In this document: positions 8,710-34,309 of the stretch, piece after piece
How the letters are laid out: each line of letters starts with the position of its first letter
Numbering within the stretch: position 1 is the stretch's first letter
DNA from: Bacilli bacterium
GTDB taxonomy: Bacteria > Bacillota_I > Bacilli_A > RF39 > UBA660
Direction: 5' to 3'
Length of the DNA: 64,000 bases
Assembly (NCBI GenBank): GCA_017411405.1
Contig: JAFQQE010000012.1
Coordinates: 86,161-150,160, forward strand
Made by a program: the position numbers and the translations under genes
The notes under the pieces: model-generated
What the model was told of the DNA's origin: nothing
What the model saw: the letters and a program-made list of their open reading frames with translations, nothing else
Database searches by the model: none

Positions 8710-8756
8710 TTTTATTTTTTTATGTGTTATAATATTTTTAAGGATGAGTGATAATT

Positions 8757-9743
8757 ATGAAAAAAAGAATATTAACAGGATTACAACCAACTGGAGTTAT
8801 TACATTAGGTAATTATATAGGTGCTATTAAACAAATGATAGAAATGCAAGAAAATTATGAATCTTATATTTTTATTGCAGATATGCATGCTATTACTGTA
8901 AATCAAGATCCTATAGTTTTACGTGAAAATATTAAAAGTTTAGTTGCTTTATATTTAGCTTGTGGGATAGATCCTAAAAAGAATACTATATATATTCAAT
9001 CTGATAATCCATATATCGGAGGTATAAGTTGGATGTTAGAATGTAATTCATATTATGGAGAATTATCAAGAATGACACAATTTAAAGATAAAGCAAAAAA
9101 GAATGCTAATTTTACTTCAGGACTTTTAACTTATCCCGTATTAATGGCTGCAGATATTTTATCTATGGATGCTGATTATGTTCCTGTTGGAGTAGATCAA
9201 AAACAACATGTAGAGTTGGCTAGGGATATAGCAATAAGATTTAATAATAAATATGGGGAAATGTTTAAAATACCTGAACCTATTTTAAAAAAAGTTGGTA
9301 CAAAAATAATGGATTTACAAACACCTGATAAAAAAATGAGTAAGAGCAGTGAAAATCAAAAGGGAGTTATAAGATTATTAGATGATATAGATGTTATAAG
9401 AAAAAAGATAATGTCTGCAACAACTGATTCTGAAATGGTTGTTAGATTTGATCCTGAAAATAAACCTGGAATATCAAATTTAATAAATATATATTCATCT
9501 TTAACTAATAAAAGTATAGAGGAAATAGAAATGGAATTTAAAGATTCTAATTATGGTAATTTTAAAAGTAGAGTTGCTGATATAGTAGTTGATGTAATAT
9601 CTAATATTCAAAATAAATATAATGAAATATTAAATAGTGATTATTTAGATGAAATTTTAGATAGTGGTATGAATAAAAATATAGAAATTTCTAAAGAATT
9701 CTATCAAAAAATGAAAAAAGTTATTGGATTAGGTAGAAATTAA
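8757..9743 (+). CDS. trpS: tryptophan--tRNA ligase
   Basis: GLQPTG..TLGNYIGA, YPVLMAADIL, VPVGVDQKQH, KMSKS. Confidence 0.97.
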   Translation: MKKRILTGLQPTGVITLGNYIGAIKQMIEMQENYESYIFIADMHAITVNQDPIVLRENIKSLVALYLACGIDPKKNTIYIQSDNPYIGGISWMLECNSYYGELSRMTQFKDKAKKNANFTSGLLTYPVLMAADILSMDADYVPVGVDQKQHVELARDIAIRFNNKYGEMFKIPEPILKKVGTKIMDLQTPDKKMSKSSENQKGVIRLLDDIDVIRKKIMSATTDSEMVVRFDPENKPGISNLINIYSSLTNKSIEEIEMEFKDSNYGNFKSRVADIVVDVISNIQNKYNEILNSDYLDEILDSGMNKNIEISKEFYQKMKKVIGLGRN

Positions 9744-9795: not shown

Positions 9796-9872
9796 GGCGG
9801 GATTGGTGAAGTGGTTAACACGCCGGATTGTGGCTCCGGTATGCGTGGGTTCGATCCCCACATCTCGCCCCA
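9796..9872 (+). tRNA. tRNA-His (GTG) with G-1 and encoded CCA
   Basis: Acceptor GCGGGAT/ATCTCGC, anticodon arm CCGGA-TTGTGGC-TCCGG (GTG at 9830-9832), T arm GTGGG-TTCGATC-CCCAC, C73 then CCA. Confidence 0.97.
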
Positions 9873-9882
9873 TTTGAGTATT

Positions 9883-9916
9883 TGGTGAAGCTGAAAGATG
9901 CTTCACTTTTTCTTTT
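9883..9916 (+). terminator. intrinsic terminator after tRNA-His, repeated after every cassette core
   Basis: GGTGAAGC-TGAAAGAT-GCTTCACT followed by TTTTCTTTT; homologous copies near 11166, 12549, 13892, 14982 and 16222. Confidence 0.85.
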
Positions 9917-10254
9917 GAATAAGCCTTATTTTAAGGGCTTTTGATATTTTAAATGATTTTTAATAATAAAAAATTTTAAAAAAGTTATAGAAAAATTGAT
10001 AAAATTAAATTTAAAAATATAATCACTAAAAATTCTTGAATTTAATATATTTTTTTGATGAAAAAATCAATAAAAATAGTAAAAAGTCAAAAAAAGGTCA
10101 AAAAAATCGAAAAAAAAGGTCAAGCACTAGGTCAAGGATTGGTCAAGGAAATCAACTGAAAAAGGCAAATAAAAGTCATATTTAGCTCATTTTTTGGTCA
10201 AAAATAAGTACAGTAAATTTCGTAAACTTAGGTTGTAAAGGGTTTTATAGCATA

Positions 10255-10284
10255 TTTACAAATAATAATATGTGATGATATAAT
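10255..10284 (+). promoter_or_regulatory. sigma-A-like promoter of cassette 1 gene (same layout in cassettes 2 and 3)
   Basis: TTTACA-18 bp-TATAAT with TG extension; also 11516-11545 and 12919-12948. Confidence 0.7.
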
Positions 10285-10312
10285 TTTAAATAGAAAGTAG
10301 GTTGAATTAAAA

Positions 10313-11065
10313 ATGGAAGAAAAGAAAAATAATAAAGGATTAGTTTTGTTAATTGTAATTTTATTAATTTTAGTACTAGGATTAGTAGGGTATATTTTTT
10401 ATGATAAAGTTTTGTTAAAAGACATACCACAAAATGAGAATAATATTACTTCAATTACGACTACAAATATAAAAGAAAGTTATAATGATATAAAAGCAAT
10501 ATTTAAATCTTTGCCTAATAAAAATGATGAATCAGTATTGTGGGATGGTTCCATTAATGATCTTATTAAAGAAGAAGTTAATTTTGACACAGATTTTAAG
10601 AATGTTAGTAAAAATGAACATGGTTTTGATTTAGATTATAGTTGTGTTGAATATAATCCTGAGGATAATGATGAAGGAATAGATAAATGTACTAAATTTG
10701 AAATTGTTATAAATAATCAAAAAAATGAATTATATTCTAATTTTTGGTATCATTTAAGGGTAATGTTAACAAAAGAATATCTAATTACTTATGATGGTAG
10801 TTTTGCAGGAGATTTAAGGATTTTTGATAAGACAGGAAAAGAAATTTTTAATGAATACATAGCTACTGATTTTGGAATTAAATTAGATGAAGAAAATTAT
10901 GTTGATGAAATTTATGGTTATACACCTAGTATTAAAGATAATAAGTTATATTTTGTAAAATATATTAAAGGAAATGAGGATACTTTTGTTATAAGTAATT
11001 TTGATTTAAGTAATAAAAAAGTAACTGAAATTTCAAATTTTAAGGGCGATGTAGGAATAATTTAA
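10313..11065 (+). CDS. cassette 1 cargo: N-terminally anchored surface protein, paralog A
   Basis: MEEKKNNKGL + TM (LVLGLVGYI.YD) + Thr-rich linker + variable acidic domain. Confidence 0.85.
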   Translation: MEEKKNNKGLVLLIVILLILVLGLVGYIFYDKVLLKDIPQNENNITSITTTNIKESYNDIKAIFKSLPNKNDESVLWDGSINDLIKEEVNFDTDFKNVSKNEHGFDLDYSCVEYNPEDNDEGIDKCTKFEIVINNQKNELYSNFWYHLRVMLTKEYLITYDGSFAGDLRIFDKTGKEIFNEYIATDFGIKLDEENYVDEIYGYTPSIKDNKLYFVKYIKGNEDTFVISNFDLSNKKVTEISNFKGDVGII

Positions 11066-11067
11066 AA

Positions 11068-11199
11068 TAACTGGATATATAAAAATATTTGTGCTAAAGT
11101 GATAATAGAGGACAAGATACAAGGGAGCTTCTATTATGTTCACAAAACGCCCCATTAAGATATTTGGTGAAGCTGAAAAAAGCTTCACTTTTTCTTTTG
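11068..11199 (+). repeat. cassette junction repeat (80-bp right arm + tRNA-end core + terminator)
   Basis: TAACTGG..GTGATAATAGAGGACA..GGGAGCTTCTATTATGTTCACAAAA-CGCCCCATT-..TTTGGTGAAGC. Confidence 0.92.
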
Positions 11200-11574
11200 C
11201 AAAAGCCTTTATTTATAGGGGGTTAAGAGTAATTATTATATTTATATCTTTTATAATTATTAATTAATTTTCTTAAAATTATACAAAAAATCTATTAAAA
11301 AATAGAATATCAAAAATCATTAAAAAAATGTTGTTTTTTATGTAAAAATTAGGTAAAAACTTTTTTAGGTCAAAAAAAGGTCCAGGAAGTGGCTAAAAAA
11401 AGTCAAGGTTTAGGTCAGAAAAAAGTCAAAAAAAGGTCAAAAAAAAGTCATATTTCGGTCATAAAAAAGTACTGGACATGTTGTAAAGTAAGATAGTAAA
11501 GGGAATTTTAAAATATTTACAAGAAATAAAACAAGATGATATAATTTTGTTATAGAAAAAGAGGTTGAAAAAAT

Positions 11575-12423
11575 ATGGAAGAAAATAAAAATAATAAAGG
11601 ATTAATTTGGTTAATATTAATTTTAATAATATTAGTATTAGGATTAGTAGGTTATATTGTATATGATAAACTTTTAAAAATTGATAAGACTATTCCTAAT
11701 AATGATGAAACAACAATTACCACAACAACTACTGTAAAAAATGAAATATTCAGAGATAGTGTTTCTGAACTATTTGTTGATTATCCAATTAAAAATGATG
11801 AAACTGTTATTGCAAATGGGTTTATTGATGAAATTATAGAAAAAAATATAAGTCATAAAGAAATATATGAAAATAAAAAAAGTAAATTTATTGGGACAGA
11901 TATTGAATTTACATATAATTCAAAAAAATGTAATATGGAAGAAGTACAAGATGATAATGGGAACATTATCAATTATGAGAATTGGTGTGAAGATATAGAA
12001 ATTAGTATAGATGGTAATCATATTTTTACTATAAATGTACCTGCTAAAGGTCCAGGAGAAGATATTCCGTATATTCTCATAACTAACAACTATATAATTA
12101 GCCAATATGATGGATTTGATGAATTTGATGGAAACGGAGTTATTAAAATATTTAATTTAAATGGTAAATTGATTAAAGAAATAAAAAACACAAGTTATAT
12201 GGGTATGCTAGATGATTGTGGTGATTATAACGAAAATGAAAATACTGTGTTTTATGATAAATATGTAATGATAGATAATAATAAACTATATTATGTTTCT
12301 TATTCTGATGTATGGTTTCCGGGAAATGACACAGAAAATGCAAGTATAAATTACTTAGATTTAGATACTATGACAGAAAACGTTTTAAAGAAATTTAAAG
12401 CAAGATTTACACAACAATGTTAA
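11575..12423 (+). CDS. cassette 2 cargo: N-terminally anchored surface protein, paralog B
   Basis: Same N-terminal ~35 aa as 10313 and 12979; divergent body; shared NNKLYY motif near the C-terminus. Confidence 0.85.
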   Translation: MEENKNNKGLIWLILILIILVLGLVGYIVYDKLLKIDKTIPNNDETTITTTTTVKNEIFRDSVSELFVDYPIKNDETVIANGFIDEIIEKNISHKEIYENKKSKFIGTDIEFTYNSKKCNMEEVQDDNGNIINYENWCEDIEISIDGNHIFTINVPAKGPGEDIPYILITNNYIISQYDGFDEFDGNGVIKIFNLNGKLIKEIKNTSYMGMLDDCGDYNENENTVFYDKYVMIDNNKLYYVSYSDVWFPGNDTENASINYLDLDTMTENVLKKFKARFTQQC

Positions 12424-12450
12424 TTCGTAAAAAAATATAATTAAAATTAA

Positions 12451-12582
12451 TAACTGGATATATGAAAATAAGTGTGATAAAGTGATAATAGAGGACAGAA
12501 ACTAAGGGAGCTTCTATTATGTTCACAATACGCCCCATTTGAGTATTTGGTGAAGCTGAAATAAGCTTCGCTTTTTCTTTTG
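12451..12582 (+). repeat. cassette junction repeat
   Basis: TAACTGG at 12451 lies exactly 80 bp before the core at 12531. Confidence 0.92.
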
Positions 12583-12978
12583 GAAATCCCTTATTTCAAG
12601 GGCTTTTGTCATTTTAAATGATTTTTGATAATAAAATATTTTCAAAAAAAATAGAAAAATTGATAAAATTAAATTTAAAAATAAAATCTCTAAAAATTCC
12701 TTAATTTAATACTTTTTTTGATGAAAAAATCAATAAAAAAATGGTAAAAGTCAAAAAAAGGTCAAAAAAATAGAAAAAAAAGGTCAAGCATTAGGTCAAG
12801 GATTGGTCAAGGAATTCAACAGTAAAAGGCAAAATAAAGTCATATTTAGGTCATTTTTTGGTCAAAAATAAGTACAGTAAATTTCGTAAACTTAGATTGT
12901 AAAGGCCTTTCTAGATTATTTACAAGAAGTAATTAATATTGATATAATAAAAATATAGAAAAAGAGGTTGAAATAAAA

Positions 12979-13749
12979 ATGGAAGAAAAGAAAAATAATA
13001 AAGGATTAATTTGGTTAATAGTAATTTTAATTATTTTAGTATTAGGATTAGTAGGATATATCGTTTATGATATAGTTTTGAAAGTTGATAAAACTAATCT
13101 TACTCCAAATAATACTAGCACAACTACTACAAGTAAAAAGATTATAGAAGAACAAAATTTTACTAAATATCCTGAAAAAAACGATGATAATATTGTTAAT
13201 TTTAACTTGCATGAATTATACGTTAATGAAAATGTTAATTTAATGGAAAATTTTAAAAATTTAAAGTTAAAAAAAGGAAATATAGATTATACACTAAATT
13301 GTACGAAGTATGATGAAGCGCATGTTGAAGCATTTGGATATGCATGTAGTCATTTTGAAATTTTAATTAATAAAGTAAAATTAGAAGATTATTTTAATGA
13401 AGGTTGTGGACATACAAAGCATATTATAATTAATGGAGATTATTTAATATTACAACTTTCCACAGGATGTGATGAAGGTTGTGGATATATTAAAATATTT
13501 AAAAATGGCGAACTTATTTATACTGTAAAAGGTACTACATCTTATTTGGATTTAAATGATTCTTTTGATAATATAATAAAATATTCTAATAACAAATTAT
13601 ATTACTTTATCCAAACAAAAGAAACAGATGTGGCTTATAATGTATTGAAAATGATTGATTTTAATAAATCTGAAATAATAGAAGAAGAATTAGAAAGAAA
13701 AGAAACTGATTATGCTGTTTGCTATGATCTTTCTGGCGAATTTGAATAA
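12979..13749 (+). CDS. cassette 3 cargo: N-terminally anchored surface protein, paralog C
   Basis: Conserved N-terminal anchor, Cys-containing variable domain, NNKLYY motif. Confidence 0.85.
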   Translation: MEEKKNNKGLIWLIVILIILVLGLVGYIVYDIVLKVDKTNLTPNNTSTTTTSKKIIEEQNFTKYPEKNDDNIVNFNLHELYVNENVNLMENFKNLKLKKGNIDYTLNCTKYDEAHVEAFGYACSHFEILINKVKLEDYFNEGCGHTKHIIINGDYLILQLSTGCDEGCGYIKIFKNGELIYTVKGTTSYLDLNDSFDNIIKYSNNKLYYFIQTKETDVAYNVLKMIDFNKSEIIEEELERKETDYAVCYDLSGEFE

Positions 13750-13793
13750 TATTTGTATAAATTGTTAAATGAATAATATATAATTAAAATTAA

Positions 13794-13924
13794 TAACTGG
13801 ATTTACAAAAATATATGTGATAGAGTAATAATAGAGGACAGAAACTAAGGGAGCTTCTATTATGTTCACAAAACGCCCCATTAGGCAATTTGGTGAAGCT
13901 GAAATACGCTTCACTTTTTTCTTT
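13794..13924 (+). repeat. cassette junction repeat
   Basis: TAACTGG at 13794 lies 80 bp before the core at 13874. Confidence 0.92.
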
Positions 13925-14164
13925 GTCATAAAAAAGTCAAAAAATGGTCAACTTTTGGTCATGAAAAAGTCTTGAAAAGGTCCTGAAAAAGTACAGAAAA
14001 AGTCAAAAATTTATAAATAAAAGTCAGGTTAAGGTCAAAAAAAGGTCATAAATAAGTCAAAAAAAGGTACTGGACTTTTTGTAACAAATTTTTTTTAAAA
14101 CAAAAAATTATTTCTTTTAAATCATTTTTATGTTAAAATATAAAATACAAATGGAGGTTTTGAA

Positions 14165-14677
14165 ATGGAAATAATTAATAAAGAATATGTAAAAATAGAT
14201 AAATTTGATCTTTTTATCGAGCAAGTAAGAGCATCAACAGAAGATAATAAATTTAATATAAATTTTTTTCAAAATTTAACACGTATTATCTATGATTATG
14301 AAAAGAAAAATCATAGATCTATAAATGAACTATATATAAAAACTGATAGTCTATGTTATAAAAAATTACAAAAGACTATACAATTTTCTATAAAAAGACA
14401 AACAGTAATAAATGCTATAATATTTGCTTTATTAAATAATGAGACAAATATTGCATTACAGTTAATAAATCATATTAAACAAGATAAAATTTTTCCTAGT
14501 CAATTGGATAATTTATTAGATTATGTTTTTATTAATGGAATGAATACAAATGATTTTTTCAATGGTGAAAAAGATAAATTTATTTATAATGATACTAAAA
14601 ATGAAATTGAAATAGGTAAAATTTATAATGTAAATACAATTAAATCGACAGGACAAACTAAAAAATTAATTAAATAA
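14165..14677 (+). CDS. cassette 4 cargo: hypothetical protein
   Basis: GGAGG RBS, TG-TAAAAT -10 upstream; unrelated to the cassette 1-3 cargo. Confidence 0.75.
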   Translation: MEIINKEYVKIDKFDLFIEQVRASTEDNKFNINFFQNLTRIIYDYEKKNHRSINELYIKTDSLCYKKLQKTIQFSIKRQTVINAIIFALLNNETNIALQLINHIKQDKIFPSQLDNLLDYVFINGMNTNDFFNGEKDKFIYNDTKNEIEIGKIYNVNTIKSTGQTKKLIK

Positions 14678-14736
14678 AAATATTTTATACTAAAAGTAGT
14701 ATTTTTGACAGACTAAATATATATAATATTATGTGG

Positions 14737-14880
14737 AGTCAAAAATTGGGCAGAAAAAGGTCAAACTACAGGTCATGTTTTGGTCAACCTTTAGTCATGA
14801 GTTGGGCAAGGAATGGTCATGAAGTGGTCACACAAAAGTCAAGATTTGGTCATTTTTAGGTCAAAAAAAGGTCAAAAAAA
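14737..14880 (+). repeat. 11-bp-periodic (G/A)GTCA direct-repeat array, 13 copies
   Basis: GTCA/GGCA at 14738, 14749, 14760, 14772, 14783, 14794, 14805, 14816, 14827, 14838, 14849, 14860, 14871. Confidence 0.9.
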
Positions 14881-14932
14881 TCTAGACTAAATTTATATAA
14901 TGCGGTATAAATTTTATTGTAAGGATAATTTG

Positions 14933-15016
14933 ACAATAGAGGGCTTCTATTATGTTCACAAAACGCCCCATTAAGATATTTGGTGAAGCTCTAGTAAGCT
15001 TCACTTTTTCTTTTGC
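14933..15016 (+). repeat. cassette junction repeat, short variant
   Basis: AATAGAGGGCTTCTATTATGTTCACAAAA-CGCCCCATT(14964)-AAGATATTTGGTGAAGC; lacks the TAACTGG part. Confidence 0.9.
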
Positions 15017-15215
15017 ATAAAAAAGTCAAAAAAAGGTCAAGTTTTGGTCACGAAAAAGACCTGAAAAAGTACCGAAAAAGTCCAGAAAAAGGCAAAAAAT
15101 TATAGAAAAAAGTCAAGACTAGGCAAAAAACAAGCAATTTTTGATCAAAAAAATGTCAAAAAAAGTTATGTGAGTATTGTTTGTGATATAATAATTTTAG
15201 AAAAGGAGAAATCAC

Positions 15216-15758
15216 ATGAAAAAAACAAGTAAAAAGAATGTTAGACGCGCCCTATTATCTATAACTGTTGGGATATTAGTATGCATGCCACTTGCAGTCA
15301 TAGAGGCATGGCCAGTGGTAATACTTTTCGGTGGTATTTGTAGTATTTTTCCAGGTGCGGTAATTCTTGATAAATTAGGGCTAATAGAATTAGTTGATGT
15401 AAAAAGATATAAAAAAATTGTTGATGAAAAAGGTAATATATTATATGATGATTATGAAAATGTAAAAAAAGTAGATGCGAACGATTATGAAAAAGAATTG
15501 AGATTTGCTGACGAAAGAAAAAGAGCAAATATATTATTTGAAGATACATACAAAAAGCCAATTATTACTAAACAAACAAGAGAAAATATTTTAAATTCTC
15601 CTAATTTATATTCAAATTGCGATATTAGAGTTAGGATGGGAAAATTTTATACTGACGAAGAAAAAGAAAAGTATATAGAAGAAAGCTTAAAAAGACCTTT
15701 ACCTGGTGAAGAAGGACTTAAACTAATAAAAAAGTGGAAACCAAGAAATAATAAGTAA
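15216..15758 (+). CDS. cassette 5 cargo: hypothetical protein with two N-terminal TM segments
   Basis: AAAGGAG RBS, TATAAT upstream, hydrophobic residues ~13-60. Confidence 0.75.
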   Translation: MKKTSKKNVRRALLSITVGILVCMPLAVIEAWPVVILFGGICSIFPGAVILDKLGLIELVDVKRYKKIVDEKGNILYDDYENVKKVDANDYEKELRFADERKRANILFEDTYKKPIITKQTRENILNSPNLYSNCDIRVRMGKFYTDEEKEKYIEESLKRPLPGEEGLKLIKKWKPRNNK

Positions 15759-15797
15759 TATTTTGACATCTTATAATATTTATGATATATTGAATAC

Positions 15798-15908
15798 GTC
15801 AAAGAAATTTGCATAAAATAAAAAAGGATACATTTGATTGCGAGAATCAGATGTTTCCCTTAATGGATTGCATCTGAAATCAACAGTTGTTGAAATCAGA
15901 TGTTTTTA
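15798..15908 (+). ncRNA. putative antisense (antitoxin-like) sRNA
   Basis: TTGACA-17-TATATT promoter at ~15764-15792; terminator CATCTGA..TCAGATG-TTTTT ending ~15907; convergent with a small hydrophobic ORF. Confidence 0.5.
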
Positions 15909-15986
15909 TTATTTATACAGTAAGGTGATTACTATAAAAAATAATAGTAGATTTATTATAAATAGAGAAAACTCTCTTTTAGTCAT
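15909..15986 (-). CDS. 25-aa hydrophobic peptide, type I toxin-like (MTKREFSLFIINLLLFFIVITLLYK)
   Basis: AAAGGTGGTG RBS; minus-strand promoter TTGTCG-17-TATAAT at 16090-16062; single TM; absent from the ORF track. Confidence 0.65.
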   Translation of the reverse strand: MTKREFSLFIINLLLFFIVITLLYK

Positions 15987-16123
15987 AATTAACCACCACC
16001 TTTCATTTATGTTTATAAACGAAAGGGAAGGCATCTGATATTTTCAAATGTATCCAAATAAATTATAGCAAACATTTGTATTTTCGACAATAAGAATCTA
16101 TAAAAAAATATAATTAAAGTTAA

Positions 16124-16254
16124 TAACTGGATATATAGAAATATATGTGATAAAGTGATAATAGAGGACAGGAACTAAGGAAACTTCTGTTATGTTCACA
16201 ACATGCCCCATTAACATGTTTGGTGAAGCTGAAATAAGCTTCATTTTTTCTTTG
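16124..16254 (+). repeat. cassette junction repeat, more diverged
   Basis: TAACTGG at 16124 lies 80 bp before the variant core TGCCCCATT at 16204. Confidence 0.88.
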
Positions 16255-16496
16255 GCGTAAAAAAGTCAGAAAAAACGTCAACTTTTGGTCACGAAAAAGA
16301 CCTGAAAAAGTACTGGAAAAGTCCAGAAAAAGTCAAAAAATTAGAGAAAAAAGACAGGTTTAGGTCAAAAAAAAGGTCAAAAATAAGTCATAAAAAAGTA
16401 CTGGACTTTTTGTAACAAATTTTTTTTTAAATAAAAAATAATTTCTTTTAAATCATTTTTATGTTAAAATATAAAACACAAACGGAGGTTTTGTAT

Positions 16497-17246
16497 ATGA
16501 ATATAGAATTTGTATCTAAAGATAATGAAGCAAAAGTGTTTGATGAAAATAACAATGGTAAAAAAATTAATAATACTGATAATATTGAAGAAATATTAAT
16601 AAAAGAAAATGTAATTGAAAACATGGAAAAGGAAATTGAACAATTAAAAAAAGATATTAATAATTATAATAAAAGTCGAAGAATTCCAACTTGGTTACCT
16701 TTAACTATGTTTACAATACTACCTTTAATTATTAATCCTATTATAATGAATGAACTTGGTGTATGGAATGATATAATATCTAATACTATTCTTGGTATAA
16801 ATAAGTTAGGACCATTACTAACTGTTTCAATTACCGGTTTTATGATAATACCTGGGTCTTTAATGTCATTATCATTTTTATTAGCAAATAAAGAAAGAAA
16901 TAAATATCAAAAAGCTAGAGAAATAAAATTAGAATTTTTAAAAAAAGATATTGTTAATCAAAGAGAATTATTAAATGAATTAAAAAACAACAAAACTTTA
17001 AGTGAAGAAAATAAAGATTTTAAAGTTCAAAAAGTTAATGATTTAGAGCAATTAAAAAGTTTAAGAGCATGTTTATTATTATGTGAACATATTGCTTACA
17101 ATGAAAAGAAATGGTATAAATATTATCAAGAAGGTAAGTTAGCTAAAAAAATGGAAAAATATTGGAATGAATCTGGTGTAGAAATGGCTAAAGATTATTT
17201 TGAAGAAAAAGGACCTATATTAGCCAAAAAATATGATAAAAAATAA
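16497..17246 (+). CDS. cassette 6 cargo: coiled-coil/two-TM hypothetical protein
   Basis: Start moved to ATG 16497 after GGAGG; upstream arm nearly identical to that of cassette 4. Confidence 0.75.
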   Translation: MNIEFVSKDNEAKVFDENNNGKKINNTDNIEEILIKENVIENMEKEIEQLKKDINNYNKSRRIPTWLPLTMFTILPLIINPIIMNELGVWNDIISNTILGINKLGPLLTVSITGFMIIPGSLMSLSFLLANKERNKYQKAREIKLEFLKKDIVNQRELLNELKNNKTLSEENKDFKVQKVNDLEQLKSLRACLLLCEHIAYNEKKWYKYYQEGKLAKKMEKYWNESGVEMAKDYFEEKGPILAKKYDKK

Positions 17247-17461
17247 AAAGTTTTATTTAGAAAAAGATAAAATATGAATAAGGTCATAATTTGGTCAAAA
17301 AAAGGTCATGCAGTAGGTCATTTTTTGGGCAACCTTTGGAAAATAAAAAGTTATAAATATAGTTTAAAAAAGATAACACAATATTAAAAAATATGATTAT
17401 AATTACGCTCTAATAAGGTATAATTTTTTTTATATGTGTTAAATTAGTATAGAGGTAATAT

Positions 17462-18853
17462 ATGAAGAATAATTTAACTAAATATAATAATAAAAGAAAT
17501 TTTGATAAAACTAAAGAACCTAGAGGTAAAAAAGAAAGTAATAATAAAAAACTTAGATTTGTTGTTCAACATCATATTGCAAGAAAAGATCATTATGATT
17601 TGAGATTAGAATACGATGGAGTATTAAAGAGTTGGGCAGTACCTAAAGGACCTAGTTATAATATTAAAGATAAACGTTTATCAATTTTAGTAGAAGATCA
17701 TCCATTAGAATATCGTAATTTTGAAGGTGTTATACCTAAAGGTGAGTATGGTGGTGGTACTGTCATGTTATTTGACGAAGGAACTTATGAACCTTTATAT
17801 GACTTTAAGAAAAGTTTTAAAGATGGAATGATAAAAATTATATTATATGGAAAAAGATTAAAAGGTGTTTGGACTTTAGTTCATTTTAAAGAAGATAATT
17901 GGTTGTTAATCAAGGAAAAAGATGAATATATGGAATTTAGTGATATTAAAACTATTAATACAAGTATTAAAAGTGGTAGAACAATGGAAGAGATTGAAAA
18001 TGGTATAAAAAATAATACTGAAGATGTTATAGAGGGTGTTAAGATAAGTAATCCTGATAAGATAATTTATAAGAAACCAAATATTACTAAATTGGAAATA
18101 ATTAAGTATTATAAAGCTGTTTCAAAAAGAATGTTGCCATATTTAAAAAATCGTGTTATAAGTACGGTTAGATGTCCTGATGGAATAGATGGTGCTTCTT
18201 TTTTTAAAAAACATTTTGAAAATGAAAGAGAAGGTTTATGTAAAGTAGATTTAAAAAATATGAGTAGTAAAGAAGATGATTATTATTTTCTAACAAGTGT
18301 AAAAGGTTTAATAAGTGAAGTTCAAATGAATAGTTTTGAATTTCATATTTGGGGAAGTAGAGTGGAAGATTTAGAAAATCCTGATATATTGGTTTTTGAT
18401 TTCGATCCTGATGAAAATTTAAATTTAAAGAAATTAAGAGATGGAGTTAGAGATTTAAAAAGTATATTAGATGAATTGAAATTAAAGTCTTTTTTGAAAA
18501 CTAGTGGTGGTAAAGGTTATCATGTTTTGGTTCCAATTAGTGGGGTAAATTGGAAAGAATTTCGTTTGATTGCGAAAAATATTGCAGAATTAATGGAAGC
18601 AAAATGGCCTTTAAAATATACAAGTAATATTAGAAAACATAAACGTAAGAATAAAATATTTATTGATTGGGTCAGAAATACTAGGGGAGCTACTAGTGTT
18701 GCACCATATTCTTTAAGACTAAGAAATAAAGCAACTGTGTCCTTTCCAATCTCTTGGAATGAGTTAGATAAAATTAAACCGAATAGTATAACTTTAAAAA
18801 AAGCATTAGAAAAAATAAAAGGAAAAGATCCTTGGAAAGGTTTTTATAAATAA
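17462..18853 (+). CDS. ligD: LigD-type 3'-phosphoesterase + primase-polymerase fusion lacking the ligase domain
   Basis: FVVQHH..HYDLRLE..LKSWAVPKGPS (PE domain); SNPDK, VFDFDP, KTSGGKGYH, APYSLR (Pol domain); no KxDG ligase domain. Confidence 0.88.
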   Translation: MKNNLTKYNNKRNFDKTKEPRGKKESNNKKLRFVVQHHIARKDHYDLRLEYDGVLKSWAVPKGPSYNIKDKRLSILVEDHPLEYRNFEGVIPKGEYGGGTVMLFDEGTYEPLYDFKKSFKDGMIKIILYGKRLKGVWTLVHFKEDNWLLIKEKDEYMEFSDIKTINTSIKSGRTMEEIENGIKNNTEDVIEGVKISNPDKIIYKKPNITKLEIIKYYKAVSKRMLPYLKNRVISTVRCPDGIDGASFFKKHFENEREGLCKVDLKNMSSKEDDYYFLTSVKGLISEVQMNSFEFHIWGSRVEDLENPDILVFDFDPDENLNLKKLRDGVRDLKSILDELKLKSFLKTSGGKGYHVLVPISGVNWKEFRLIAKNIAELMEAKWPLKYTSNIRKHKRKNKIFIDWVRNTRGATSVAPYSLRLRNKATVSFPISWNELDKIKPNSITLKKALEKIKGKDPWKGFYK

Positions 18854-18913: not shown

Positions 18914-19645
18914 ATGCTTTGTCCGTTTTATTTTTTTGATGAAAAAGAAAGAGAGTTAGAAAATATACATTGTGATATTATATTTAATATATCTAAGTTA
19001 TTTAAAGAATTGAATACTAATAACATTTATGAAATATTTTATATTTATTGTTATTTGTTATGGAATGGTTATTTTTCAGTGGATAAAATATACATGTATG
19101 ATTATAAAGATATTTTAGATGAAGATAACACTATATTTTTAGGTAAGGGTTGCTGTAGGCATAATTCATCTCTTTTAACTGATGTATTAAGATATTTAGA
19201 ATTTAATAGCACGGAAGTAAGTATAAGAACTATAAATGTTAAATTAGATAGAATAATTAATGATATCAAAAGAATACATGTATTATATGGAGAAAAAGAA
19301 GAAAAAGTACCTAAAAATCTTCCGAATCATAGTGTTGTTTTAGTTAAACAAAATAGTTCTCTTTTGTTAGATTCTACAGCATTAACTTGTATAGAAGTTT
19401 TAAATAAAGGCAAACTTTATTGTCCTGATGGGAAATATAAAATAAATAGAAAGCTATTTTTAAATGAAATAAATAAAAGAAATATTAATTTTGAAAGTAA
19501 ATCATTATTAAGTAAAGAAGTTTTAAAAAATCATTATTTTATAGCTAAAAATATAATAAAAGATAATAAAAATTTAATTGAAGATTTTTATAATGATAAT
19601 AATAATAAATATAATAAAGTTAAAGAATTAGTTAAAAAAATATAA
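18914..19645 (+). CDS. hypothetical protein, possible transglutaminase/papain-like Cys-His-Asp fold
   Basis: GCCRHNS, NHSVVLV and LLLDST occur in triad order. Confidence 0.55.
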   Translation: MLCPFYFFDEKERELENIHCDIIFNISKLFKELNTNNIYEIFYIYCYLLWNGYFSVDKIYMYDYKDILDEDNTIFLGKGCCRHNSSLLTDVLRYLEFNSTEVSIRTINVKLDRIINDIKRIHVLYGEKEEKVPKNLPNHSVVLVKQNSSLLLDSTALTCIEVLNKGKLYCPDGKYKINRKLFLNEINKRNINFESKSLLSKEVLKNHYFIAKNIIKDNKNLIEDFYNDNNNKYNKVKELVKKI

Positions 19646-19722
19646 TTTTTATAAAGTATAGTTATTATACTTTATTTTTTTTTAATACTTTGATATAATT
19701 TATTAAGAATAAGAGGGATTAT

Positions 19723-20613
19723 ATGAATAATGTAGTGGATATGGTTAAATATTATATAGTACATAAAAATGCTGATAATAGTGTTATAGAATATTTAAAA
19801 AATAAAATAGATAAATGTGAAATTAAAGATCTAATTGTTGTACAGGTTGAATTATTATTTACTGATCCTTGTGATAATGTAGTTAGCGAATTAGTTAATT
19901 ATATAAATAATAAAATAAATATAATATTAAAAGATATTAAGTTGTCTTCTTTAGTTAATTTAATATGTGATTTACATAATAAAGTAGATGATTTGTTAGA
20001 TTTAAATAAAGAATTAGAAAATAATAATGATACTATGTTTTCTAATATAAAACTTAAAAATTTTAATAATGATATAAGTGATACTGATAATGCTTCTATT
20101 TTAATTAATGAAATTCAAAATAATAAATTTATTATTAGTAGAAATAATAGTGTAATTAGTTCTATTAATATTTGGTTAAATAATTTGTCTAATAGTTTTA
20201 ATAAGAGAGTAGATAATGTAAATATTAAAGAATTATTAGTTAGTTATATAGATTTATTATCTTTAATTAATAAAGATGAGTTTATAAATAACTATATTAA
20301 TAAAATATCTAATAATATTGATAAATTATTATTAAATAGTAATTTGTTAGAGACTATAACTAATATAATACCAGAGATAGATAAAATATATAAAGATAAT
20401 TATGAAGAAAAAAATAATATATATAAATTATTAGATTATTATATTGATTTGGTAGAAATAACTGTAAAGAAAAAAATTAATAATTTAAATTATGAAGAAA
20501 AGATATTATTAAAAGAGAAGATAGAGTTAATAATTGAAGAAATATTAAATAATGATAATCCTGATGATGATTTTAAAGTGTTAGTTATTAATAGTTATTT
20601 AAAATTATTATAA
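19723..20613 (+). CDS. Asn/Ile-rich hypothetical protein
   Basis: 296-aa ORF, GAGGG RBS, TG-TATAAT upstream. Confidence 0.6.
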   Translation: MNNVVDMVKYYIVHKNADNSVIEYLKNKIDKCEIKDLIVVQVELLFTDPCDNVVSELVNYINNKINIILKDIKLSSLVNLICDLHNKVDDLLDLNKELENNNDTMFSNIKLKNFNNDISDTDNASILINEIQNNKFIISRNNSVISSINIWLNNLSNSFNKRVDNVNIKELLVSYIDLLSLINKDEFINNYINKISNNIDKLLLNSNLLETITNIIPEIDKIYKDNYEEKNNIYKLLDYYIDLVEITVKKKINNLNYEEKILLKEKIELIIEEILNNDNPDDDFKVLVINSYLKLL

Positions 20614-32290: not shown

Positions 32291-34309
32291 ATGAATTTAG
32301 TAATAGTTGAGTCGCCAAGTAAGACTAAAGCGATTGGTAAATATTTAGGTAGTAATTATAAAGTTGTATCAAGTAAAGGGCATATAAGAGATTTAGCTAC
32401 TAGTGGTAAATTTGGATTGGGTGTAGATATAGAAAAAGATTTTGAACCTAATTATATACCTATAACTGGTAAGAAAAAAATAATTAATGAATTAAAGCGT
32501 GATGCTAAAGAGGCTGATATGGTTTATCTTGCAACAGACCCTGATCGTGAAGGAGAAGCTATTAGTTGGCATTTATATGATGCTATAGGATTAAATGATG
32601 ATAATTATAAAAGAATTCTTTTTAATGAAATAACAGAAGGTGCTGTAAAAGATGCTATAAAAAATCCTAAGATGATTGATTATAATTTAGTTAAGAGTCA
32701 AGAAACTAGAAGAATATTAGACAGAATTATAGGATTTAGGTTGTCAAAACTTATGCAATCTAAAACTGGAGGTAAATCTGCTGGACGTGTACAAAGCGTA
32801 GCATTAAAACTTATTGTAGATAGAGAAAGAGAAATAGAAGCTTTTATACCAGAAGAATATTGGACTATAGAAGCTGATTTTGATTTATTTAAGTCTGAAT
32901 TAGAAAAATATAATAATAAGAAATTAGAAATTAAAAGCGAAGAAGAAGCGAATAAAATACTTATTGAGTTATCTGATACATTTAAAGTAATTAGTGTAGA
33001 GAGTAAAGAAAAAAATAAAAAGGGTGTAATGCCATTTATTACTTCTACATTACAACAAGCTTGTTCTACTAAATTTAATTTTGGTTCTAGTAAAACTATG
33101 AGTATAGCTCAAAAGTTATATGAAGGTAAAGATATTGGTAGTGAAACTGTCGGTTTAATTAGTTATATGAGAACTGATTCAACAAGACTTTCAAATGTTT
33201 TTGTTAGTGATGCTTTATCATATATAGAAAGTGAATTTGGAAAAGAATACGTAGGGAATGTTAAGATAAGTAAAAAGACTGATAACGTACAGGATGCTCA
33301 TGAAGCTATAAGGCCTACAAGTATAAAACGTACTCCAGAAAGTGTTAAAAAATATTTAACTAGTGATGAATTTAAAGTATATAGTATTATTTATTATCGT
33401 GCTCTAGCTAGTTTAATGAAGGATGCTAAAGTTATTCAAACAAGTATAGTAATGGATAATAATAATTATCATTTTAAAACTACTGGTCAAGTTACTAGTT
33501 TTGACGGATTTATGAAAGTATATAAGGATTATATGAATTCTGAAGATGTAACTCTTCCAATTATTAAAGAAGGAGATATTTTTAATACTGATAAGATATC
33601 AAGTGAACAACATTTTACTAAACCTGCATCTCGTTATACAGAAGCTTCATTAATTAAAGAAATGGAAAGTTTAGGAATAGGTAGACCTAGTACTTATGCT
33701 AAGACTATGGAAACTTTAAAAGAAAGAGCTTATGTTAATATTATAGATAAGAAATTTCATCCAACTGAAGTTGGTATAGAAACTACAGATAAATTACAAG
33801 AATTTTTCTCTAATATAATAAATGTTGAATATACTCGTGATATGGAAACTGATTTAGATGAAATTGCTTTAGAAAAGCAAGATAATATTAAAGTATTAAG
33901 AGATTTTTATGATAAGTTTGAACCATTAGTAGAAAATGCTTTTTCTAATATGGAGAAGAAAGCACCTGTTAGTACTGGCGAGGTTTGCCCTAATTGTGGT
34001 AATGAATTAGTTATTAGGAAGGGTAGATATGGAGAATTTACTGCTTGTAGTAATTATCCGGAATGTAAATATATAAAACAAGTAGAAAAAGAGATAAAAG
34101 AAATTTGTGATTGTCCTGTTTGTAATAATGGGAAAATAATAGAAAAGAAAACTAAGAAAAATAAAATATTTTATGGATGTAATAATTATCCTAAATGTAA
34201 AACTGCTGCTTGGGATATACCTACTGGAGAATTATGTCCAGAATGTAAGAACTTATTAATTAATAAAAATAATATTATTAAGTGTAGTAATTGTGAATAT
34301 GAAAAGTAA
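32291..34309 (+). CDS. topA: DNA topoisomerase I
   Basis: LVIVESP.K, ATDPDREGE, SAGRVQS, YMRTDS, C-terminal zinc fingers. Confidence 0.98.
   Translation: MNLVIVESPSKTKAIGKYLGSNYKVVSSKGHIRDLATSGKFGLGVDIEKDFEPNYIPITGKKKIINELKRDAKEADMVYLATDPDREGEAISWHLYDAIGLNDDNYKRILFNEITEGAVKDAIKNPKMIDYNLVKSQETRRILDRIIGFRLSKLMQSKTGGKSAGRVQSVALKLIVDREREIEAFIPEEYWTIEADFDLFKSELEKYNNKKLEIKSEEEANKILIELSDTFKVISVESKEKNKKGVMPFITSTLQQACSTKFNFGSSKTMSIAQKLYEGKDIGSETVGLISYMRTDSTRLSNVFVSDALSYIESEFGKEYVGNVKISKKTDNVQDAHEAIRPTSIKRTPESVKKYLTSDEFKVYSIIYYRALASLMKDAKVIQTSIVMDNNNYHFKTTGQVTSFDGFMKVYKDYMNSEDVTLPIIKEGDIFNTDKISSEQHFTKPASRYTEASLIKEMESLGIGRPSTYAKTMETLKERAYVNIIDKKFHPTEVGIETTDKLQEFFSNIINVEYTRDMETDLDEIALEKQDNIKVLRDFYDKFEPLVENAFSNMEKKAPVSTGEVCPNCGNELVIRKGRYGEFTACSNYPECKYIKQVEKEIKEICDCPVCNNGKIIEKKTKKNKIFYGCNNYPKCKTAAWDIPTGELCPECKNLLINKNNIIKCSNCEYEK

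Follow-up and report, generated by a model that had tools for sequence, protein, structure and literature searches.

Several described systems carry accessory genes in tandem or beside an attachment site. Cis-mobilizable elements (CIMEs) and their tandem accretion with integrative and conjugative elements or integrative and mobilizable elements occur in streptococci; integrons include chromosomal arrays and integrase-less attC clusters; tycheposons are tRNA-linked elements of Prochlorococcus; and phage morons stand next to attR. Passages of McMurdie et al. (2011; PMC3146451) invoke the concept of CIMEs and accretion and name the serine recombinase DsiB for the ssrA genomic islands of Dehalococcoides. 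For tRNA-linked islands, the passages of the Islander paper used here (PMC4383910) require an integrase for each island and describe tRNA genes as targets known at that time for tyrosine integrases only, serine integrases not being known there. In this study, we analysed a 64,000-nt stretch (the window) of contig JAFQQE010000012.1 from a Bacilli bacterium (genome G000), in which about 130 bp had been predicted to be a recombination site with paired recombinase half-sites around a tRNA-derived core. The flagged 130 bp are probably one of five internal junctions in a tandem array of six recombinase-less, single-gene integrative cassettes at the 3′ end of tRNA-His, and a sixth junction, of the attL type, lies at the tRNA itself.

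The array is best seen as a variant of tandem accretion, which is known in kind. Like CIMEs, its units have attachment arms and no recombination genes, share one attachment site in tandem order, and would depend for their movement on the integrase of an autonomous relative; unlike CIMEs, they are 1.1–1.4 kb long with a single self-promoted gene, their autonomous relative is a prophage, their arms carry phased RGTCA repeats, they occupy a site made of the final 6 nt of tRNA-His and one further base, and their mobilization is putative. The staphylococcal cassette chromosome (SCC) and pseudo-SCC elements, with their cassette chromosome recombinases (Ccr, which are large serine recombinases), and the Dehalococcoides ssrA islands are likewise tandem, in part recombinase-less and separated by short direct repeats derived from the 3′ end of an essential gene, and an island with a large serine recombinase (LSR) in the same genus (genome G005) uses the tRNA-His GCCCCAT core in parallel with them; however, these islands are 10–60 kb long, hold many genes, lie at rlmH or ssrA and have no counterpart of the phased repeats. 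Integrons share with the array the ordered, co-oriented single-gene cassettes of unknown function, a conserved recombination site at the cassette end and one fixed insertion point, but the array has no intI, attI or attC and no tyrosine recombinase nearby, its cassettes have their own promoter-like and terminator-like sites, it is anchored on a tRNA gene, and its site appears to derive from a phage attP. With tycheposons and the tandem tRNA islands treated in the Islander passages (PMC4383910) it has in common a regenerated tRNA, displaced 3′ fragments, tandem arrangement and cargo-only units. The tRNA is intact and its displaced 3′ end, GCCCCAT, recurs at five further junctions; unlike in Islander islands, this fragment measures just 7 nt, each unit spans a single gene, and no integrase lies in any unit. 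Phage morons resemble the units as promoter–gene–terminator modules beside a phage attachment arm, and the prophage described below has three small open reading frames (ORFs) before its arm, whereas the array units stand alone, each with both attachment arms, six times and with the phage absent. What sets the array apart is thus its single-gene scale, self-contained promoter and terminator, 7-nt tRNA fragment and RGTCA arrays. A limited full-text literature search returned no description of single-gene tRNA cassette arrays, which is not proof of absence.

If the cassettes are moved in trans, gut Bacilli with small genomes of about 1 Mb would swap single accessory genes at a safe site without a recombinase of their own, and the logic of integrons would have been reached with phage attachment arms and a tRNA gene. 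Three DNA parts of the system are concrete enough to test: the invariant left arm of 19–22 bp, the 7-bp core and the phased RGTCA arrays. Our analysis also exposed a clade of LSRs at tRNA 3′ ends, a location at which the passages of the 2014 Islander paper held such serine integrases to be unknown (PMC4383910).

Anatomy of the array and of its junctions

The array fills the 7.5 kb between tRNA-His and a ligD-like gene (Table 1), which six GCCCCAT cores cut into six co-oriented units. The order within a unit is a 7-nt variable spacer, a terminator hairpin, an RGTCA cluster phased by 11 bp, a promoter-like site, one ORF and a conserved left arm. From this order, each internal junction can be read as attP-like, with the P arm of the upstream cassette, the core and the P′ arm of the downstream cassette, the P′ arm comprising everything from the spacer and a copy of the tRNA-His terminator to the promoter and gene. 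The P arm ends in an invariant CTTC..TTATGTTCA.A followed by 3–4 variable nucleotides, and the core restores the tRNA end. Between positions 9873 and 17460, RGTCA occurs 60 times on the + strand and 0 times on the − strand, and 46 of the 46 gaps of 50 nt or less are within 1 of a multiple of 11; no cluster of this kind was found elsewhere in the assembly of this genome (1.04 Mb, 78% complete). Strong promoter-like sites (11/12 with TG) stand ahead of ORFs 1–3. No recombinase gene is present in the array, and the window contig has no PF00589 or PF00239 match.

Aligning nine junctions from five sources (alignment A3) showed a conserved block of about 50 bp, from about −24 to +18 around the core, and the left-arm motifs CTTC and TTATGTTCA were invariant in 9/9. 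The left-arm block is followed by the 3–4 variable nucleotides and then the next GCCCCAT. Within the window the core is constant, and the junctions differ in the 3–4 bases on its left and the 7 bases on its right; the spacer TTGAGTA accompanies the right arms of cassettes 1 and 3, which resemble each other. The left arms are of two types, a long one that starts with TAACTGG (units 1, 2, 3 and 5) and a short one preceded by a second RGTCA array (unit 4). As the original prediction had noted, TAACTGG lies exactly 80 nt before the core (11068, 12451, 13794 and 16124). By alignment A3, the short variant at 14964 retains only the block from about GGGCTTCTATTATGTTCACAAAAC onward. The short type also occurs in genomes G010 and G312 and in prophage G454. 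The long left arm (11108–11138 and its equivalents at the other long-type junctions) also holds a 10-bp inverted repeat, ATAATAGAGG and CTTCTATTAT around a 15-nt loop; at junction 5 an A-to-G change still pairs as G-U in RNA, and in the short variant the loop is down to about 1 nt.

In the flagged junction, TTCACAAAA and TTTGGTGAA are complementary at 8/9 positions around a 15-nt spacer, CGCCCCATTAAGATA, which starts with the core, precisely where this repeat had been placed. The same geometry was expected at the other four internal junctions and is present at all of them; pairing is 8/9 at two (13865 and 14955) and no more than 7/9 at the others (12522 and 16195). The left position in the tRNA, said to be poorly matched, reads CCCACATCT and has indeed a complementarity of 3/9. 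A single copy of such a repeat is unremarkable in the AT-rich DNA of the window (G+C 22–29%), because the window holds 59 such 8/9 repeats with 9-nt arms and a 15-nt spacer, and 20 block shuffles averaged 40. The composite junction GCCCCATT-N6-TTTGGTGAAGC, by contrast, greatly exceeds chance expectation, with six copies in the window and none in 100 shuffles, and no copy of it was found elsewhere in the assembly. The five repeat copies are homologous repeats of one junction, not independent observations.

The right repeat arm, TTTGGTGAA, overlaps the 5′ stem of an intrinsic-terminator-like hairpin, whose form in the units is GGTGAAGC-loop-GCTTCAC with a T-run. By scan and folds, there are 10 terminator-like sites against 0.9 expected, with one at each of the six junctions. 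An identical spacer-plus-terminator forms the 3′ flank of tRNA-His in genome G318, where no GGTCA was seen, and we read it as the native tRNA-His terminator; G045 and G454 likewise have it on the right side of the core. Judged by this identity, the right arm of a cassette appears to start with a copy of the 3′ flank of tRNA-His itself, and such copying would alone be sufficient to account for the conservation of the right arm. The inverted repeat is real, and its right arm is foremost a terminator stem. Among the attP-type junctions that could be built, the 15-nt spacing is kept at the five internal window junctions, in contig L057 of a metagenome-assembled genome (MAG), in G454 and in the deduced attP of G010 and G312 (it is 16 in G005), but the symmetry drops to 6/9 in G312 and G454 (manual count). 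The proposal of paired recombinase half-sites fared less well than the geometry: apart from this loss of symmetry and the overlap with the terminator, the attB right flanks of G010 and G312 lack that terminator stem, and no recombinase is tied to the site.

The tRNA-His site in relatives and in a prophage

Clean attL/attR pairs were found in two genomes. G010, with exactly one cassette of the window type, has the attL TC-GCCCCAT-TAGG and the attR TA-GCCCCAT-ATAT; G312, from another genus and with one cassette at tRNA-His, has the attL TC-GCCCCAT-TAAG and the attR AC-GCCCCAT-ATAT. The right flanks of these attR sites (ATATATGAATC.. and ATATGGGAAAATC..) are unrelated to the right arm of a cassette. 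Because attL and attR share only GCCCCAT, and because the flanks in the window vary around a constant core, the crossover would lie inside this 7-bp core. The view that these are recombination junctions with the 3′ end of tRNA-His as attB was borne out by these pairs and by other members of the genus that have no cassette-type insert at the same trpS–tRNA-His–ligD locus. Neither of the outcomes named as fatal to the original prediction, lost symmetry and spacing or crossovers outside the core, was observed; the exchanges in G010 and G312 all fall inside the core.

The trpS–tRNA-His segment was matched full-length in 12 of the 16 genomes of the genus (G000 included) and partly or weakly in the other four, and the context 3′ of the tRNA varies among them. 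A different terminator, read as native, follows tRNA-His directly in G011, G007, G004 and G001. The ligD-like gene flanks tRNA-His or attR in G010, G005, G011, G007, G004 and G454; among the matches listed, it stands directly behind tRNA-His, in inverted orientation, in G011, G007 and G004. In these three cassette-free genomes (L062, L063 and L064) it is on the strand opposite to that in the window, G010, G005 and G454, which suggests an inversion or a different ancestral arrangement at a hotspot. G005 has at least one cassette of the window type. Another type of element follows tRNA-His in G003, G012, G013, contig C17 of G005 and, diverged, G008. Outside the genus, G180 holds decayed junctions and an ORF-less unit of P′, RGTCA and P of about 400 bp, and L057 (3.1 kb) has a long-type junction.

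A left-arm probe with up to two mismatches gave five hits in G000 among 401 genomes of the family, and the sole other exact hit was in G010; the one-mismatch hits in G312 and G180 are real, and the remainder are at the level of a reversed-pattern control. A scan of genome contigs returned only two loci, L057 and a contig resembling the G010 locus, and the two loci returned by a scan of metagenome contigs were rejected, being chance matches in unrelated DNA of higher GC content. The runs in which the window stretch occurs are labelled gut metagenomes. Run X5 belongs to another study, and in its Logan contigs cassette 6 runs on at its end into a complete short left arm, the core and the terminator; therefore a full copy of the truncated cassette 6 of the window exists elsewhere. 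A joint in run X3 that goes back 2331 was considered as a circle and discarded, as it falls in a repeat shared by cassettes 4 and 6.

The same attachment arm ends a prophage, the IMG/VR contig G454, which by Pfam encodes the small and large terminase subunits, portal, protease, capsid, tail, holin and endolysin. At its end, three small ORFs, an RGTCA array, a short left arm, GCCCCAT, the terminator and ligD follow one another in the same orientation as in the window. The arms of the cassettes are thus homologous to those of an autonomous element at the same site, as in CIMEs, with the short left arm and the RGTCA array common to G454, beside ligD. Record G460, the closest to G454, shows no difference from it over the 701 bases compared and ends before the attachment site. 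In IMG/VR, a scan for the cassette arm found G454 as the sole contig, and viral scans for RGTCA runs and right-arm pieces gave only G454 or unrelated DNA. Five records have a terminase 79–94% identical to that of G454; PF00589 was found in 0/5 of them and an LSR at one end in 3/5. The homology of G454 to its relatives ends at the endolysin gene; its attachment module therefore differs from theirs. No attachment features and no recombinase were found at 27 loci around the terminase of G454 relatives.

Formation of the array and candidate recombinases

We propose that a cassette, once excised as a circle, would undergo conservative site-specific recombination with the tRNA-proximal site, the exchange taking place in GCCCCAT. 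The integrase would act in trans, a temperate phage with the same left arm and site being its most plausible source, and repeated integration would stack the cassettes, similar to the accretion of CIMEs. Several points weigh against this reading. No recombinase is linked to the site in the loci inspected, and stacking needs attP × attL-type events, which are non-canonical for either class of integrase. Part of the array could have grown by duplication (cassettes 1–3 are paralogs with 33–38% identity), and the array may now be partly fixed, with its last cassette truncated. An empty allele with the right flank of G010 or G312 was not found, and the crossover zone rests on the comparison of attL with attR. 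The Logan contigs of four runs gave no evidence of a circle or an empty site, their joints being short-sided (mostly 20–25 letters) and in low-complexity DNA. The G454 contig starts at the terminase genes and its integrase end is missing. Finally, the element is rare: besides G000, it was seen in four of the searched genomes (G010, G005, G312 and G180), one MAG contig and one IMG/VR phage (two records).

As to the class of the recombinase, our preference is split, with a tyrosine integrase that has RGTCA as arm or accessory sites ranked first, an LSR second and something else last. A lambda-type (heterobivalent) tyrosine integrase, which we rank only narrowly first, would use GCCCCAT as a 7-bp overlap, GTTCAC about 6 bp to its left as a core-type site, and, to build an intasome, the phased RGTCA of the P′ arm (and of the P arm in the short variant and the phage) as arm-type or as excisionase or accessory sites. 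Phased unidirectional arm arrays are a hallmark of tyrosine integrase attP arms, and unidirectional repeats phased by 11 bp lie 60–330 bp from the core, on one or both sides, in the cassettes and in the prophage. The 7-bp zone of identity fits an overlap of 6–8 bp, both clean attR sites have a chromosomal flank with an in-register partial mirror of the left motif (TTCACAAAT-N8-ATATATGAA in G010; 6–7/9, manual count), and a tRNA target fits the tyrosine-only statement in the Islander passages (PMC4383910). On the other hand, the bases flanking the overlap vary, the P′ side has no in-register core motif, and the P arm of long-type cassettes lacks an RGTCA array. None of the five relatives of G454 has a tyrosine integrase, and the three non-Xer integrases of the window's own genome belong to other elements on other contigs, with no GCCCCA or RGTCA array nearby. 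All PF00589 (five) and PF00239/LSR matches of this genome are on other contigs, and no GCCCCA or RGTCA cluster was found adjacent to its five tyrosine and two intact serine recombinases.

An LSR is a possible but somewhat more doubtful candidate. For such an enzyme the junction would be an attP of about 50 bp, the dyad arms (TTCAC...GTGAA or GCTTC...GAAGC) the half-sites and the crossover dinucleotide inside GCCCCAT, and the units would resemble pseudo-SCC elements, moved by the LSR of a phage or island. The conserved block is of this length, and the 47-bp dyad GCTTC..GAAGC matches at 11/23 positions, a score reached by 3% of the shuffles, whose mean is 6.2. An 8.8-kb island of G005 lies at tRNA-His with its attR at GCCCCAT, and its first large gene encodes a 603-aa LSR; members of this LSR clade stand at the 3′ ends of tRNA-Gly in G180, tRNA-Thr in two viral contigs and another tRNA in phage G458. 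LSRs are, moreover, abundant in the family (9, 6, 5, 3 and 1 PF07508 hits in five genomes), lie at one end of three of the five G454 relatives, and a broken one adjoins tRNA-Met in the window's own genome. However, the attP of the G005 island is unrelated to the cassette junction outside the core, G454 does not share the attachment module of its relatives, and no LSR stands beside a cassette-type arm in the first 45 of 80 viral loci of the clade or at the 27 terminase loci of G454 relatives. RGTCA arrays occur in 0/5 of the LSR-bearing phage relatives and were not seen at the printed attL sites of the clade; to our knowledge, LSRs do not need accessory arm sites. The 7 nt to the right of the core vary where specific LSR contacts would be expected, the originally proposed dyad is centred on the final base of the 7-bp crossover zone, which would make AT, a palindrome and the sole shared dinucleotide there, the crossover dinucleotide, and stacking would need attP × attL, whereas LSRs normally act on attP and attB alone. 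An LSR type common to G010, G312 and G180 was rejected as a candidate, its flanks having no tRNA, core or repeats.

Three further explanations bear on the array as a whole. Tandem duplication and divergence, with homologous recombination between arms of about 150 bp and junctions that are relics of past events, would dispense with site-specific recombination today. Cassettes 1–3 are indeed paralogs that share their arms and N-terminal coding sequence, the cassette arms are 65–87% identical over 144–272 nt, and the distal end of the array is truncated. We consider this improbable in view of the ORFs, since no relationship exists among ORFs 4–6 and those of the cassettes in G010 and G312 (ORFs 4–6 are also unrelated to ORFs 1–3), and of the lone cassettes, bounded by clean attL/attR, that other genera have at the tRNA, the invariance of the left-arm core and GCCCCAT where flanks differ, and the presence of the same arm at the end of prophage G454. 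Still less credible, in our judgement, are cassettes moved by the host Xer system (pdif modules or integrative mobile elements exploiting Xer) or by recombination of a folded single strand, as with integron attC sites or HUH enzymes, through the hairpins that flank the core. The left-arm TTATGTTCACA matches 9/11 positions of the XerD arm of the host dif-like site at the end of contig C28; this XerD-like arm alone matches, with 13–14 mismatches in the full 28-bp dif register, and a Xer crossover would fall to the left of TTATGTT and not in GCCCCAT, and the Xer/dif model was rejected. Two hairpins do flank the core (ATAATAGAGG-loop-CTTCTATTAT and the terminator), but in the short variant the left one is reduced to a few pairs; genes for an integron integrase or a HUH enzyme did not turn up nearby, neither having been searched for specifically. 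An Rfam scan of the window matched the tRNA and no other family, attC-like ones included. A bolder extension of the tandem-cassette reading is an integron-like gene-capture platform on a tRNA gene, in which a phage integrase, possibly of the LSR clade that targets tRNA 3′ ends, would serially insert self-promoted 1-kb cassettes of one gene into the last 7 bases of tRNA-His and the RGTCA arrays would be new accessory or operator arrays that couple recombination or expression to the phage; we regard it as less likely than not.

Coordinates, cassette genes and other elements at tRNA genes

Table 1. Features of the cassette array, its flagged junction and its chromosomal flanks, in positions of the window.
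Feature	Position	Strand	Basis
trpS, conserved left flank	8748–9743	+	Pfam
tRNA-His (GUG), attB	9797–9872	+	ARAGORN; Rfam tRNA 61.5 bits
GCCCCAT at tRNA-His, last 6 nt of tRNA and next T	9867–9873	+	pattern search
Junction 0 (attL type): GCCCCAT, 7-nt spacer TTGAGTA, TTTGGTGAAGC..GCTTCAC hairpin (9884–9907), T-run	9867–9917	+	
Cassette 1: RGTCA 10085–10200; promoter-like 10255–10284; ORF 10313–11065 (250 aa, N-terminal membrane anchor); long left arm, TAACTGG at 11068	9874–11148	+	
Left-arm block GCTTCTATTATGTTCACAA of flagged junction	11127–11145	+	alignment A3
Inverted repeat TTCACAAAA (11139–11147) / TTTGGTGAA (11163–11171), 8/9 complementary	11139–11171	+	
Core GCCCCAT of junction 1, putative crossover zone	11149–11155	+	pattern search; attL/attR comparison in G010, G312
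Terminator-like hairpin GGTGAAGC-loop-GCTTCACT and T-run; 5′ stem overlaps right repeat arm	11166–11199	+	scan; fold
Cassette 2: RGTCA 11368–11461; promoter-like 11516–11545; ORF 11575–12423 (282 aa, paralog of cassette 1 and 3 products); long left arm	11156–12531	+	
Cassette 3: RGTCA 12749–12864; promoter-like 12919–12948; ORF 12979–13749 (256 aa); long left arm	12539–13874	+	
Cassette 4: proximal RGTCA 13935–14059; ORF 14165–14677 (170 aa); distal RGTCA 14737–14874; short (phage-type) left arm 14875–14963	13882–14964	+	
Cassette 5: RGTCA sites 15024–15050; ORF 15216–15758 (180 aa, membrane); 370-nt non-coding stretch with 25-aa reverse ORF; long left arm	14972–16204	+	
Cassette 6: RGTCA 16264–16390; ORF 16461–17246; distal RGTCA 17282–17320 (family D11)	16212–17340	+	
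Further GCCCCAT cores	12532–12538, 13875–13881, 14965–14971, 16205–16211	+	
ligD-like gene (phosphoesterase and primase-polymerase domains), conserved chromosomal right flank	17462–18853	+	Pfam

The cassette proteins matched no Pfam, PHROG or NCBIfam family. The start of cassette 6 ORF is likely the ATG at 16497, behind GGAGG; this cassette ends abruptly near 17340, within its distal RGTCA array, with no left arm, terminal attR or B′ flank. In cassette 5, a minus-strand ORF (15909–15986) encodes a hydrophobic peptide of 25 aa, MTKREFSLFIINLLLFFIVITLLYK, and stands behind a ribosome site of the GGTGG type; the stretch 15780–16100 had a contig depth 2–4 times that of its neighbours in 4/4 metagenome runs. 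This stretch, which has no Rfam match, is a candidate for a type I toxin-like module or for a small element in several copies.

Other elements occupy the tRNA-His site. The 8.8-kb island of G005 (contig C17; L071, 5140–13961) lies at a second copy of tRNA-His and encodes a 96-aa ORF, the 603-aa LSR, two SET-domain proteins, a metallo-beta-lactamase-fold protein, GNAT, YunG and an Mrr-nSTAND3 protein; its attR is TGCCCCAT, followed by NUDIX and ligD genes. The start of its right arm also follows tRNA-His in G003, G012 and G013 and, in diverged form, in G008. In G045 (contig C15; L297, reverse strand, 18974–19900), a different recombinase-less single-gene cassette of about 790 bp, bounded by GCCCCA and with a 204-aa ORF, lies at tRNA-His; it has unrelated arms and a 13-bp inverted repeat, CCTATTAGAATAT / ATATTCTAATAGG, and the native TTTAGTGAAGC terminator follows it. 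The tRNA-His site therefore collects several cassette families. A different phased array, GGTCACTTTT(C/T) every 11 bp, was seen in five other genomes of the family, G389, G147, G124, G375 and G356 (L091, L092, L097, L098 and L100).

The LSR clade has a constant layout in genomes and phages, in which the tRNA 3′ end is followed by a hairpin, a 96-aa ORF and the LSR. The LSR is always preceded by this small conserved ORF, and the pair stands directly behind the 3′ ends of tRNA-His, Gly(UCC), Thr(UGU), Thr(CGU) and others (L207, L209, L211, L216, L217, L226, L238 and L179). This location in the present family differs from the statement in the Islander passages that serine integrases were not known at tRNA genes (PMC4383910). 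The remnant of the clade in the window's own genome (contig C24; L076, about 108271–109062) covers query residues 225–488 with two in-frame stops and lies about 200 nt downstream of tRNA-Met. The dif-like 28-mer of the same genome is found near 33523 on the minus strand, at the very end of contig C28, which also holds two Xer-like recombinases.

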